The translations under genes and the position numbers were made by a program. A stretch of 64,000 nt of DNA, taken from an uncultured Candidatus Saccharibacteria bacterium. GTDB lineage: Bacteria > Patescibacteriota > Dojkabacteria > SC72. Shown in pieces: positions 1 through 57,115 of the stretch; the first letter of the stretch is position 1, and every line of letters starts with the position of its first letter. The notes beneath the pieces were generated by a model. The model worked only from the letters and a program-made list of their open reading frames with translations. It did no database searches and was not told the origin of the DNA. The stretch lies in contig CAYOEG010000002.1 in assembly GCA_964403155.1 (NCBI GenBank), positions 74,296-138,295 of the forward strand, read 5' to 3'.

Positions 1-1
1 T

Positions 2-598
2 TCTAAAATTACTTCTAATCTACTACTAATCGAAAAGGACGATGAACTTGCAAAAGAGCTTTCCCTTTCATATCCCAATGTTCTCAATATAGATTTCTTA
101 GATTGGGATTTCAAAGAGTTAAACAGCGAGAAAAGCAAAAAAATAATATTTTTTGGATCCTTGCCATACAATGTAAGCAAGCCAATTATCCAAAAGATCA
201 TCTCATCTGAGTTCTTTAATAATAACTGTTATTTCATAATTCAAAAAGAAGTTGCAGATAAATACATAGCAAAGAGCCCAAACTCAAATATCCTCTCACT
301 TAAATCTCAACTTTTTGCTAATCCAACCAAATTATTTGATATCTCTCCTGGTTCATTCTTCCCTCCTCCCAAAGTGACAAGCAGTTTGATTTGTTTTGCC
401 CCCAAGTTACAGAAAATACAGCTAGATAATGAGAAATTTATAAAATTTCTTGAAAAATCTTTTAAATCACCAAGAAAAACCCTCAGAAACAATCTCAAAG
501 GTACAAATTTCAATGCAGACATACTTGCACTATTAGATAAACGCCCACAAGAGTTAACATTAGATGAATATCTTTTCCTATTCAACAATCTGATATAA
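2..598 (+). CDS. rsmA: 16S rRNA (adenine1518/1519-N6)-dimethyltransferase RsmA/KsgA, 5'-truncated by the window edge
   Basis: The reading frame is open from position 2. It contains the KsgA-type NLPY-like motif (GSLPYNVSKPIIQKII) and a C-terminal helical domain. Confidence 0.7.
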   Translation, partial: SKITSNLLLIEKDDELAKELSLSYPNVLNIDFLDWDFKELNSEKSKKIIFFGSLPYNVSKPIIQKIISSEFFNNNCYFIIQKEVADKYIAKSPNSNILSLKSQLFANPTKLFDISPGSFFPPPKVTSSLICFAPKLQKIQLDNEKFIKFLEKSFKSPRKTLRNNLKGTNFNADILALLDKRPQELTLDEYLFLFNNLI

Positions 599-14045: not shown

Positions 14046-14099
14046 AAAATAAAAAAGCCCTTACACCAGAATACCATATTGATACTCTAATGTAAGGGC
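14046..14099 (-). terminator. Rho-independent terminator of the T-box leader
   Basis: On the minus strand: GCCCUUACA, a 25-nt loop, UGUAAGGGC, then UUUUUUAUUUU. Confidence 0.6.
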
Positions 14100-14252
14100 G
14101 AATCCACGCGTTACCACCTTACTTCTTTAAGATATCACTATCTTAAACTCACACCCTAACATAGGGTAGGGGTTCTAATCTTCATATATATGAATTTCTT
14201 CCCAAGCCTCCAAGGTGACTAATCTTGTACTAACGGTTTCCATATTATATCA
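14046..14252 (-). promoter_or_regulatory. T-box riboswitch leader with promoter, upstream of hypothetical gene plus valS
   Basis: There is an extended -10 box (TGATATAAT on the minus strand, 14244-14252). The T-box core AAGGUGGUAACGCG sits at 14104-14120. The antiterminator is UAAGG[UGGUAAC]GCG-UGGAUU-CGC-CCUUA, which is mutually exclusive with the terminator. GUU and GUC valine codons are present in the putative Stem I. Confidence 0.65.
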
Positions 14253-31693: not shown

Positions 31694-32105
31694 GGGGACG
31701 TAAGGCTTTCGACAGGAGTCTGCGTTTAGTTGTCACAAACCGAGGGTTGTCTCGTTAATCAACGCACAATGATAAGTGTAAAAAACAAAATCGTCGCCTT
31801 TGCAGAGAATATTAAAGCAAGTTTGGCTATGCCAGCTTTCAACTTTAACTTTGCTTAAGGTTTAGTCAATTAAGTTTGACTAATGTCTTCTTTTTCTATT
31901 CCTAGTTAGGAATTTAAGACAGTCGTTACTAGGATATATACTTACTATTTTGTCGGTAGAGTAGTGAGCACGAAAGTAATTACTGAGTGGATATATCTTT
32001 TTGCTAATCCTTTTAGATATGTCTAACTATTTAGGATTAGATATGTTTGTACATGATGCTAGACAATGCTTATGGACGTGGGTTCAATTCCCACCGTCTC
32101 CACCA
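31694..32105 (+). ncRNA. ssrA: tmRNA (ssrA)
   Basis: The 5' end is GGGGACGUAAGGCUUUCGAC, the 3' end is a tRNA-like GGACGUGGGUUCAAUUCCCACCGUCUCCACCA, and the acceptor pairing is GGGGACG/CGUCUCC. The tag reading frame ends ...AMPAFNFNFA-stop (approximately 31796-31858). Confidence 0.85.
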
Positions 32106-40713: not shown

Positions 40714-43700
40714 ATGACGGAGAAGGTAAAGCTAAATGAAAATCAGAAGAAGGCTGTTCAGTATGTAGAGGGGGATCTTCTGATTATTGCTGGTGCAGGG
40801 ACAGGTAAAACGGCAGTCATAACCCAGAGGATATTACATCTCATCAAAAAATGTAATGTAAAACCTTCGGAGATACTAGCTTTAACATTCACAGAGAAGG
40901 CTGCTGCTGAGATGCAGGAGAGAATAGATAATGAGATGGAGTACGGGTACGAAGAACCTTGGATATCCACATTCCATTCATTCTGTGATGGTATTTTGAA
41001 GGAAGAAGGCTACAACATTGGTTTGGATGGAAACTATTCATTGATGACCACAGCGCAGTCATATATCTTCATCAGAAAATACCTGCACGATTTACCATTG
41101 AAGACGCTCAAGCCAAGAGGGATGGTGACCAAGACACTCAATGACATCCTTAAACATTTCTCAAGACTTCAAGACGAGGATGTATCTCCAGAAGACTATC
41201 TAGCATTTGCTAAAAAATTACCTAAGAATACTGAAGCAGAGAAGGCAGATTTTGATAAATACAATGAGTTAGCAGAGACATACAATATGTATTCTGATCT
41301 GAAGTTGAAAGAATCCAAGGTAGATTTTGGAGATTTAATTATCCTTACATTAAAGCTGTTCAGGGAGAGACCAAATATTTTAGAAAAATACAGGAAGAAG
41401 TTTAAATATATCTTGGTAGATGAATTTCAGGATACTAATTACACTCAAAATGTGTTGGTAAATATTCTTACTTTAGGCCTAGATGAAAGTAAAAAGAAGG
41501 AATCGAAAAGAAAAAATGAAAATCAAAGACCACTTCTTACTGTCGTAGGGGATGACGATCAAGCAATTTACAAATTCAGAGGTGCCGCAATCTCCAACAT
41601 TCTTCAGTTCAAAGAAACATATCCTGATGCTATGGAAGTGGTTTTAACTGAAAACTATCGTTCAAGACAAGAAATCCTAGATGCATCACACACCCTAATT
41701 GAAAAAAATAACCCAAATAGATTGGAAGTGACAGAGGAGATAGACAAAAAGCTTGTTGCAAAGGGAGTGTTTAGGGAAGATGAAAATATTGTGAATCTAA
41801 TTACCGCAGGAAACGAAACAGCTGAAGCAGAAAAGATTGCAGAAGAAATTGCGAAATTAACAGGCTTTGGGGAGTACGCAAAAGAAACAGAAAAGGCACA
41901 AGTATTTGATGAAACAGGGCAATCTTCTTTAGTTTCTAACACAGGTGAGATGCCATACAAATTCTCGGATATAGCAATATTAGTAAGGGCCAATTCTCAT
42001 TCAGAGGCGATTGTTCAAGCATTGAGGGATATGGGTATAGAGTACAAGCTAGGAGGATCAAGGGGTTTGTATTTCAGACCTGAGATCCAGGACATTATTG
42101 CCTATATGAAGATACTTACAGACTACTCTGACGAGATATCTATGTACAGGATATTAGCTATGCCAATATGGAAGTTGAGTCCAAGGGAGTATATGGACGT
42201 AAATAGGTTGGCAAGAGAGGAAAAGATATCGCTATTCCAAGAATTAGAAAAACTTTGGAATGTAAGATTAGGGGAGGGAAAAACTGATGAGATTGCAGTT
42301 ATTGAAAATAATTTGATAGAAAAGGTATTCAACGCAGAGAGTATCGCAAGTATTACAAATCTGTTAATCATTTTGAATGAATCCATATTAAAAGTTAAAG
42401 ACGGAAGGCCGATTACAGAGATTCTGTATGATTTTGTAAAAACAAGTGGATATTTGGATTCGTTTGTTACAGAGAATACATCCGAAAGTCTCTTTGCAGT
42501 CTCAAATATTCAGAAATTCTTTGAATCAATTAGAAAATATGAAAAAGACAACCAAAATACAAATATCTACGAATATGTTGACTATCTAAACTATTGTATA
42601 GAGGTAGGGGAGTCTCCAGTGGTTGATCAACTCGAGATGGAGGAATTTAATGCTGTGAATATTATGACAGTACATGGGGCAAAAGGCTTGGAGTATCCAG
42701 TTGTGTTTTTGACCAATCTTGTGTCACAGAGATTTCCATCTAGAAATATGAGTGATTCAATTCCAATGCCGGAAGAACTTGTTAAAGAAGTATTGGACAA
42801 GAAGATGAGCGCAGAGGAATCACACATGCAAGAGGAAAGAAGGCTTTTTTATGTTGGAGCTACACGTGCGAAAGAGAAATTGTATCTCACCGCGGCGAGT
42901 TTCTATGGTGATGCTAAAACTAAGAAAAAACCAAGTGTGTTCCTTTATGAAATTCTTGATAGGGATGTGGCAGAAGAATTCTCGGGAGAAAAGAGTGATA
43001 TTAATATTGATAGCTTTGAAGAAAAAGAGAGTGTTTCAATAACTGGGGCGGATGTAAGAATCCAAGTTGCTAAAAATTTCAGTTACTCGCAGTTAGATAC
43101 GTATGAAGTATGCCCTAGAAAATATGAATATGCATATATATTGAAAGTTCCCCAGAAACCCAATGCGGCGCTTTCATTTGGTATAACGGTGCATAATACA
43201 TTGAATAACTTCTATGCATTGCATAAGAAAGCACAAGAGGGGATAGAAGGAATAGTTCAGTATCCTATGGAAGATGAAATGATAGAACTTTATGAGAAGA
43301 ATTGGACCAGAACAGGCTACGATAGTAGCAAACATGAGCAATTAAGGAAGACCCAGGGAGAGAATATTCTGAGAGAATATTTTAAGAATATATATTCAAA
43401 GGAAGAAAGAATATTAAATCTTGAGGAGAATTTCTCAGTACATACAGCTGAATACAGCTTTGGTGGTAAGGTGGATAGGATTGATTTGGTAGAGGAAGTA
43501 GGGGGTGTGAAGCAGGTTAGAATTGTTGATTACAAAACGGGGAAGGTGAAGAAAGAAGCGGAGATAAAGAATGACCTGCAACTTCCTTTGTATGCGATTT
43601 TTGTAGAGCAAAAATTCGGATACAAAGTAGTGGGTGCCAGGTACATTTTCTTAGAAGAGGGCGTTTCCATTGATGTTGATTTGTTAGAGAAACGAAGAGA

Positions 43701-53975: not shown

Positions 53976-54027
53976 TAGATGTATCTTCTAAAAACCTTCA
54001 TCTTTTGGTAGAATAGGCTACTTTAAT

Positions 54028-54100
54028 GGGAGTATAGCTCAGTCGGCAGAGCGCGGTTCTTATAAAGCCGTGGTCGATGGTTCGATTCCATCTACTCCCA
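54028..54100 (+). tRNA. tRNA-Ile (anticodon UAU), no encoded CCA
   Basis: Hand-folded. The acceptor stem is GGGAGTA/TACTCCC, the D-arm is GCTC...GAGC, the anticodon stem is CGGTT/AGCCG, the loop is CTTATAA, and the T-loop is TTCGATT. Confidence 0.7.
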
Positions 54101-54142
54101 TATTTCATCAATATTTAATAACTGCAGAGTACAATCTTCGTT

Positions 54143-56248: not shown

Positions 56249-56323
56249 CGCGGAGTAGAGCAGTGGCAGCTCGTCAGGCTCATAACCTGAAGGTCGTTGG
56301 TTCGAGTCCAACCTCCGCAACCA
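56249..56323 (+). tRNA. initiator tRNA-fMet (anticodon CAU)
   Basis: C1·A72 mismatch (CGCGGAG/CTCCGCA-A-CCA), anticodon loop CTCATAA, and T-loop TTCGAGT. Confidence 0.75.
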
Positions 56324-56981: not shown

Positions 56982-57007
56982 GAATTTGGTATAATCTTGT
57001 ACTACTT

Positions 57008-57081
57008 GGTGGAATAGCTCAGAAGGTTAGAGCATGGGATTCATAAACCCAAGGTCGGTGGTTCGATTCCACCTTCCACCA
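57008..57081 (+). tRNA. elongator tRNA-Met (or tRNA-Ile2), anticodon CAU
   Basis: G1-C72 (GGTGGAA/TTCCACC), anticodon loop TTCATAA, and T-loop TTCGATT. Confidence 0.7.
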
Positions 57082-57115
57082 TATTTTCACAAAAAGGAAC
57101 TTATAGTATAATCAA

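Follow-up and report, generated by a model that had tools for sequence, protein, structure and literature searches.

Which element precedes the valyl-tRNA synthetase gene valS in this stretch of DNA, and how would it act on the genes downstream? The stretch, here called the window, comprises 64,000 nt of contig CAYOEG010000002.1 from an uncultured Candidatus Saccharibacteria bacterium that GTDB places in the Dojkabacteria, within the candidate phyla radiation (CPR). A first-pass annotation described the leader of valS, on the minus strand, as a canonical T-box riboswitch. The leader is judged here, with a probability of about 0.8, to be a functional valine T-box. The word canonical does not apply to it, because its Stem I is devoid of the internal specifier loop, the AG bulge and the distal loop, and carries the codon in its apical loop. 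Control is probably exerted mainly on transcription, by attenuation of valS and of a small open reading frame (ORF), ORFx, placed between the leader and valS.

The leader and its aptamer

A protein search with the valyl-tRNA synthetase (ValRS) retrieved 51 loci from species-representative genomes, nearly all of which bear the label Candidatus Dojkabacteria or are CPR metagenome-assembled genomes with a wrong label. The presence of the leader was scored with nhmmer and with R1, a covariance model built here, in the 41 loci with at least 500 nt upstream, and six of them carry it (L001, L002, L004, L019, L020 and L041). Seven more leaders, all before valS and all with GUC, were obtained from a metagenome scan with the Stem I pattern in which the loop triplet was left free, and two more on contigs found via ORFx. 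The total is 16 leaders, the window and 15 other loci, each of them upstream of valS and all from one Dojkabacteria subclade; the ValRS of the leader-bearing relatives is 69-90% identical to that of the window. Since all the extra leaders carry GUC before valS, covariation between specifier and gene class could not be shown. The R1 model found no other T-box in the window or in the 51 valS loci. A second R1 match, in L052 at 1-45(-), was rejected as an assembly chimera, in which an inverted partial Stem I at the contig end (L052:1-60) is joined to the Illumina adapter AGATCGGAAGA.

Re-extraction of the sequence recovered the extended -10 box, the T-box sequence, the antiterminator and the terminator with its U-run, each where the first-pass annotation had read it (Table 1). 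The leader, then estimated at about 190 nt, spans approximately 14243 to 14047 and measures about 195 nt. The extended -10 box is present in every aligned relative, including L019 (TGgTATAAT) and two relatives without a T-box (L003 and L036); a simple -35/-10 scan misses it owing to a poor -35. Transcription probably starts a few bases past this box, at about 14243-14237.

The leader was compared with the Rfam T-box family RF00230. The default scan of the 64-kb window gives no match at the Rfam gathering score (93 bits), whereas with permissive filters the segment 14242-14091(-) matches with 32.7 bits (E = 1e-5 when 401 nt are searched, and 0.0016 when the 64-kb window is searched in full against all 4227 families). 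RF00230 is the sole family that matches the whole leader, and this is the sole T-box signal in the 64 kb. In the alignment, Stem III, the T-box bulge and the antiterminator are placed at posterior probabilities near 1, and the region of Stem II and the IIA/B pseudoknot aligns poorly. The ends of Stem I fall on the GA/K-turn region of the model and the distal 70 nt are deleted, 70 Stem I model positions being collapsed to 7 nt. The low score is therefore explained by the absence of about 70 nt of Stem I, those that form the tRNA-elbow platform. The full leader folds with z = -4.1 relative to shuffles. The 5' half, folded as a single sequence, is uninformative (z = +0.9), and its minimum free energy (MFE) fold differs from the covariation-supported one at equal energy (-15.4 vs -15.2). 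Taken with the covariation in the 16 loci, the E-values of RF00230 and the folding of the full leader place the leader beyond chance and sustain its identification as a T-box.

Covariation was computed over the 11 distinct sequences among the 16 leaders (alignment A3). In these, the proportion of paired cells is 93.9% and two-sided changes occur in 11 pairs; none of 500 shuffles reaches the observed pairing and covariation values. When the register is slid by one column the pairing falls to 46-58%, with a sharp peak at slide 0. This pattern supports the predicted Stems I, II and III.

Stem I has a base helix AAGCC/GGCUU of 5 bp (AAACC/GGCUU in the window), changed on both sides at pairs 6-39 and 7-38, and an upper helix CAAGA/UCUUG of 4-5 bp (CAAGA/(C)CUUG in the window), in which pairs 19-31 and 21-29 vary compatibly. 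An asymmetric internal loop occupies the K-turn position, with GUUARUA on the 5' strand (GUUAGUA in the window) and GA on the 3' strand. The 3' strand, G-GA-GG, is conserved as G-GA-G and has the same form as G-GA-GC of Nocardia farcinica, and the 5' strand is without the G.A / A.G arrangement. The hairpin closes directly on the specifier loop YUAGUCA, in which only the first base (U or C) varies and all 16 leaders carry GUC. A valine codon is thus presented by Stem I, as the first-pass annotation expected, albeit in an apical and not in an internal specifier loop. The C in the third codon position obeys the 'C rule', which the S-turn imposes, its five stacked purines clamping the codon-anticodon helix at its minor groove.

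Stem II follows with a base helix GGR/YCC (GGG/CCC in the window, 3 bp), whose pair 43-72 switches from G-C to A-U. Its strands are AAGAAA on the 5' side and GAUUAGAA on the 3' side, GA(G/U)UAGAA in the alignment, and its distal hairpin UUCAU-AUAU-AUGAA has three pairs changed on both sides, 51-62 and 52-61 among them. The S-turn strands AAGAA and A(G/U)UAGAA are otherwise invariant, the window's subclade having AUUAGAA instead of AGUAGAA. The small hairpin at the usual place of the IIA/B pseudoknot is kept in all relatives with differing sequence (CCCUU..AAGGG; UCCUA..UAGGA plus an extra hairpin in L019). It has 4-6 bp, unconserved loops of 3-6 nt and one pair that switches from A-U to U-A. 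A complementary 3' segment that could complete a pseudoknot was looked for in the leader alignments and none was seen, and neither a IIB helix nor an F-box is found at this place.

Stem III appears in the MFE fold, aligns at high posterior to the Stem III of Rfam, has three pairs changed on both sides and is paired in 99% of the cells. The antiterminator is invariant in the 16 leaders save for one bulge position and the loop. Its UGGU suits a tRNA with discriminator A73, as the first-pass annotation said.

The 5' strand of Stem I contains, at 14236-14231(-), an invariant CCGUUA that equals the F-box consensus, and the match is probably a coincidence. Pairing of its GUUA with the UAAC of the bulge was considered and rejected, since the bulge of L019 reads UAUC with no compensation.

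Table 1. Features of the valS leader and of the two genes downstream, in positions of the 64,000-nt window; leader numbering is counted from 14243.
Feature	Position	Strand	Leader numbering	Remarks
Extended -10 box TGATATAAT	14252-14244	-		Read from sequence
Ultrashort Stem I, 36-nt hairpin	14239-14204	-	5-40	Covariation and Rfam alignment
Specifier loop UUAGUCA, 7 nt, apical	14222-14216	-		Val codon GUC 14219-14217, purine A 14216
Stem II with S-turn, 34 nt	14203-14170	-	41-74	Covariation
Small hairpin at the usual IIA/B pseudoknot place, 15 nt	14167-14153	-	77-91
Stem III	14147-14126	-	97-118	9 bp, loop GUGA, then purine string GAAG
Antiterminator	14121-14093	-	123-151	A1 UAAGG/CCUUA, bulge UGGUAAC, A2 GCG/CGC with loop UGGAUU
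T-box sequence AAGGTGGTAACGCG	14120-14107	-		Read from sequence
T-box bulge UGGUAAC (DNA TGGTAAC), 7 nt	14116-14110	-
Terminator hairpin GCCCTTACA...TGTAAGGGC (also written GCCCUUACA...UGUAAGGGC)	14099-14057	-	145-187	20 pairs, 3-nt loop
U-run TTTTTTATTT (hairpin then directly UUUUUUAUUU)	14056-14047	-
ORFx	14032-13541	-		163 aa
valS	13551-11266	-		761 aa

Expression platform and competing explanations

The hairpin past the antiterminator was called by the terminator scan, with 7 G-C among its 20 pairs. The 3' strands of A2 and A1 form part of its 5' arm (shared 14099-14093), so that terminator and antiterminator are mutually exclusive. The terminator hairpin is worth -28.4 kcal/mol and the antiterminator alone -4.5 kcal/mol, and for this reason the default state is OFF; the whole leader has -51.8 kcal/mol in the terminator fold and -27.1 kcal/mol in the antiterminator fold. 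Terminator and U-run are kept in all relatives. In L019 several substitutions in the 3' arm still leave a continuous 22-bp hairpin (-28.5 kcal/mol), which is followed by CCUUUUUAAUAU.

The cognate tRNA-Val presumably has the anticodon GAC and the discriminator A73. Transcription would start shortly past the -10 box, and the nascent 36-nt Stem I would present GUC-A in its apical loop. Stem II would then form and dock the purines of its S-turn (AAGAA / UAGAA) beside the codon, followed by the short hairpin at the pseudoknot place, Stem III and the antiterminator. The anticodon of an uncharged tRNA-Val would pair with GUC, stabilised laterally by the S-turn, and its 3'-ACCA would pair with the UGGU of the bulge. 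The bound tRNA would hold the weak antiterminator and block the stronger terminator, and the polymerase would read into ORFx and valS. On the other hand, a charged tRNA-Val could not cap the bulge, and consequently the terminator would form and transcription would end in the U-run.

The mode of action is where another explanation survives best. Reviews (including PMC10482949) regard the elbow platform of a long Stem I as essential in transcriptional T-boxes, for a fast capture of the tRNA before the polymerase reaches the terminator, and associate a short Stem I with the control of translation, which has no time limit. Without the platform, tRNA might be captured too slowly for a decision during transcription, and the same aptamer might act mainly after transcription, on translation initiation or mRNA stability, the hairpin and U-run being an inefficient terminator in this organism. 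The gene for RNase J, divergent next door, would fit such a control, as would the wider 8-kb region, in which terminator-like sites are not enriched (4 vs 4.2 in shuffles). However, a 20-bp hairpin followed by a U-run is a textbook intrinsic terminator, and it contains neither a Shine-Dalgarno sequence nor a genuine start codon; the ATG of valS or ORFx lies about 25-30 nt past the hairpin, in A/U-rich sequence. If ORFx started at the in-frame ATG 14077, which lies within the terminator, its start codon would be sequestered. This start was rejected, since L004 does not keep the frame, and 14032 is taken instead. Mainly post-transcriptional control is improbable on this evidence, and attenuation of transcription is preferred.

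Several points weigh against a functional valine T-box acting in this way. The RF00230 score is far under the gathering threshold. The sequences of alignment A3 are closely related and the alignment itself was fitted to the model, and the upper helix of Stem I and the antiterminator are invariant and so without covariation evidence. A standard K-turn cannot be drawn from the two strands at that position, and a kink there is only putative. The elbow platform, which the reviews say transcriptional T-boxes generally need, is lacking. The IIA/B pseudoknot is replaced by a hairpin; in the ileS model systems the pseudoknot is needed for tight tRNA binding, and in N. farcinica a hairpin substitute gives only a partial rescue, recovering about 200 of a 1200-fold loss in vitro. 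Neither the 64-kb window nor any of 62 loci contains a tRNA-Val gene. Finally, the T-box has been lost in L003 and L036, which shows that the element is dispensable.

The pattern of loss bears also on whether the leader is a decaying relic that no longer binds tRNA and is at most a constitutive partial terminator. Of the 41 Dojkabacteria species representatives, 35 have no such leader before valS. The loci L003 (2940-3003) and L036 (2940-3003), whose ValRS are 84% identical, hold the promoter and a degenerate version of the first ~28 nt (ATGGAATTGTTAGCACACATCTAATCAC) and then run straight into valS; the riboswitch was lost there by deletion, and a relic remains. The more distant Dojkabacteria valS loci have unrelated upstream sequence, and neither nhmmer nor a regular expression for the T-box core was convincing in any of them. 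A non-consensus K-turn and pseudoknot would agree with decay as well. Decay of the window's own leader is nevertheless quite unlikely. The specifier loop, the S-turn strands, the bulge and the antiterminator helices have remained invariant while ValRS is just 69-90% identical, and compensatory changes in the helices are the pattern expected of a working RNA.

Still less likely is a Class I T-box of canonical build, whose Stem I would be long and which would have an internal specifier loop, the elbow platform and the IIA/B pseudoknot. The 3' half of the leader is indistinguishable from that of canonical T-boxes and the F-box consensus string is present, though within Stem I. However, only about 96 nt separate the promoter from Stem III, and these are filled by covarying hairpins of 36, 34 and 15 nt; the Rfam alignment drops 70 positions of Stem I and ends at 32.7 bits against 93, and neither an AG bulge nor a distal loop is present. 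Hardly credible is a specifier GUU within the invariant CCGUUA, the second candidate of the first-pass annotation: it is also a valine codon and equally invariant, but its place is the 5' strand of the internal loop, where specifiers do not lie (an apical loop or the 3' strand of an internal loop is where they sit; PMC10482949 among others), it breaks the third-position C rule of the S-turn, and the triplet that aligns with the known AUC-A is GUC-A, the first candidate, in UUAGUCA.

Regulated genes and other features of the window

The gene valS was identified by two NCBIfam equivalogs, each above its cut-off (NF004349, 793 bits vs 704; TIGR00422, 760 bits vs 612), which upholds the gene assignment of the first-pass annotation, and it has the Pfam domains tRNA-synt_1 and Anticodon_1. 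As it follows the leader in every case, valS would be the conserved regulated gene. The ValRS is short: its match to the valS profiles ends at position 686 of 860, and behind the anticodon-binding domain it shows no C-terminal coiled coil. Past the end of valS no terminator was found. The next ORF has 248 aa and no family, and metG comes behind it; a promoter-like TTGACA-17-TATCTT at 11257-11229(-) lies between this ORF and valS.

ORFx is the first gene past the terminator and encodes an acidic, all-helical orphan protein whose stop overlaps the valS start (13551) by 11 nt. The unknown protein and its overlap with valS had been described before; the length then given, 164 aa, counts the stop codon among the 164 codons. 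Homologues occupy the same place in 14 of the 16 leader loci (12 of the first 14, plus L059 and L060). In L001 and L019, with ValRS 90% and 69% identical to that of the window, ORFx is absent and the leader abuts valS directly. Judged from this distribution, ORFx would be an optional passenger of the regulated unit and not a fixed part of it.

The ORFx family evolves fast, with a mean column identity of 33% and with W105, F117 and T147 as invariant residues. Just six relatives were found among 5.8 billion proteins, none of them named or with a Pfam domain, and ORFx itself has no Pfam or NCBIfam match. The AlphaFold model is confident, with eight helices and a predicted local distance difference test (pLDDT) score of 82.8, and no PDB fold matches it at E<2. 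In the loci examined, the family is known only between a T-box and valS. In L057 about 1.1 kb separate the leader from valS and may hold two ORFx-like ORFs.

Other RNA features were observed elsewhere in the window. ARAGORN predicts a tRNA-Ile with the anticodon TAT (UAU) at 54027-54101(+), a means of reading AUA that is uncommon in bacteria, and two tRNA(CAT) genes lie near it, at 56249-56323 and 57007-57082. A transfer-messenger RNA of 412 nt at 31694-32105(+) scores 126.9 bits; relative to the Rfam model it has a 60-nt insertion in the tag region, and its tag is VKNKIVAFAENIKASLAMPAFNFNFA. At 42803-42900(+) a match was obtained to RF03531 (n00280, a small RNA of C. difficile within a helicase gene); its 45.9 bits (E = 2e-4) stay under the gathering score of 65.2.

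Comparison with known T-boxes

Class III T-boxes of ileS are known from Actinobacteria, and the original work on them is reportedly that of Sherwood 2015, Suddala & Zhang 2019 and Battaglia 2019. They occur in Nocardia farcinica and Mycobacterium tuberculosis/smegmatis (PDB 6UFM, 6UFG) and are summarised in PMC7583486 and PMC10482949. In this class Stem I is short and lacks the double T-loop platform, the specifier is apical in a loop of 5-6 nt and there is a dependence on Stem II; the class is described as 'mostly' translational (PMC10482949). In the crystal structures A16-U17-C18-A19, the specifier and its purine, are paired to the anticodon of tRNA-Ile. The ileS aptamers of N. farcinica (T99) and M. 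tuberculosis (T87) were taken from Supplementary Table 2 of PMC10651847 and aligned side by side with the leaders.

Leaders and models share a short Stem I without elbow platform and an apical specifier with C in the third position, followed by A. The segments xUCAyCxxGGAGsCUUsGGAAGAA and AGUAGAAyC are common to the leaders and T99/T87. GUC-A of the leaders falls on AUC-A, their loop YUAGUCA on CCAUCA of N. farcinica, and the 3' strand of Stem I, GGAGGCUUGGGAAGAA, nearly matches GGAGCCUUCGGAAGAA of N. farcinica. The S-turn strands AAGAA / AGUAGAA are identical to those of N. farcinica (G37 A38 A39 / G67 U68 A69 G70 A71). The change from G to U in the window's subclade corresponds to G67U, a substitution that costs just 2.4-fold in tRNA binding. 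Stem II comes directly after Stem I, the aptamer of about 90 nt is of the size of the models (87-99 nt), and Stem III, the 7-nt UGGN bulge and the helices A1 and A2 are the same.

The differences concern the output, the amino acid and several details of the fold. The leader ends in an intrinsic terminator, whereas the output of the models is a sequestrator of the Shine-Dalgarno sequence; it is associated with valine and valS instead of isoleucine and ileS, and its host is a CPR bacterium and not an actinobacterium. The apical loop has 7 nt (5-6 in the models), at the K-turn position GUUARUA replaces the GAC-GA-U of the 5' strand, and the base helices of Stem I and Stem II have 5 and 3 bp, in the models 3 and 5. 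Where the models have a 21-nt IIA/B pseudoknot with the F-box, the leader has a plain hairpin. By the four-class scheme of PMC10482949 the predicted aptamer belongs to Class III, but to a form of it without the IIA/B pseudoknot. The 'mostly' in the description of the class leaves room for known terminator-coupled exceptions.

TBDB applied its short-Stem-I model to Actinobacteria and to RF00230 hits only, and the window leader would not have counted among those hits. Standard Rfam annotation misses T-boxes of this type, and in the CPR and other poorly studied phyla they may be under-counted. A literature search returned no paper linking T-box riboswitches with CPR or Patescibacteria. The mechanism class is well understood; the putative combination of a short aptamer, no pseudoknot, a terminator, valS and a CPR host is unusual. 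The chances are about even that the leader is a working natural transcriptional T-box without elbow platform or IIA/B pseudoknot, and with it the smallest non-glycine terminator-coupled aptamer and the first T-box described in the CPR. In that event the elbow contact would be no general kinetic requirement for co-transcriptional sensing of tRNA, and a Stem I, an S-turn and a simple hairpin as backstop would be a sufficient decoding module. A working leader would also provide a natural test of the kinetic arguments that tie architecture to mode of action, and, for engineering, a very compact part of about 150 nt that senses tRNA.

With the transcriptional Class I T-boxes of the Bacillus subtilis tyrS type, the leader shares the competition between terminator and antiterminator with a default OFF state, the T-box bulge, Stem III and the S-turn of Stem II, as well as the regulation of an aminoacyl-tRNA synthetase gene with the matching specifier. 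Class I, in contrast, has a long Stem I of about 90 nt with K-turn, specifier internal loop, AG bulge and a distal loop that stacks on the tRNA elbow, and the IIA/B pseudoknot. Class II, represented by glyQS, is likewise a minimal natural T-box that acts on transcription with one standard module missing. The missing module, however, is not the same: glyQS keeps the long Stem I and drops Stem II, whereas the leader keeps Stem II and drops the platform.

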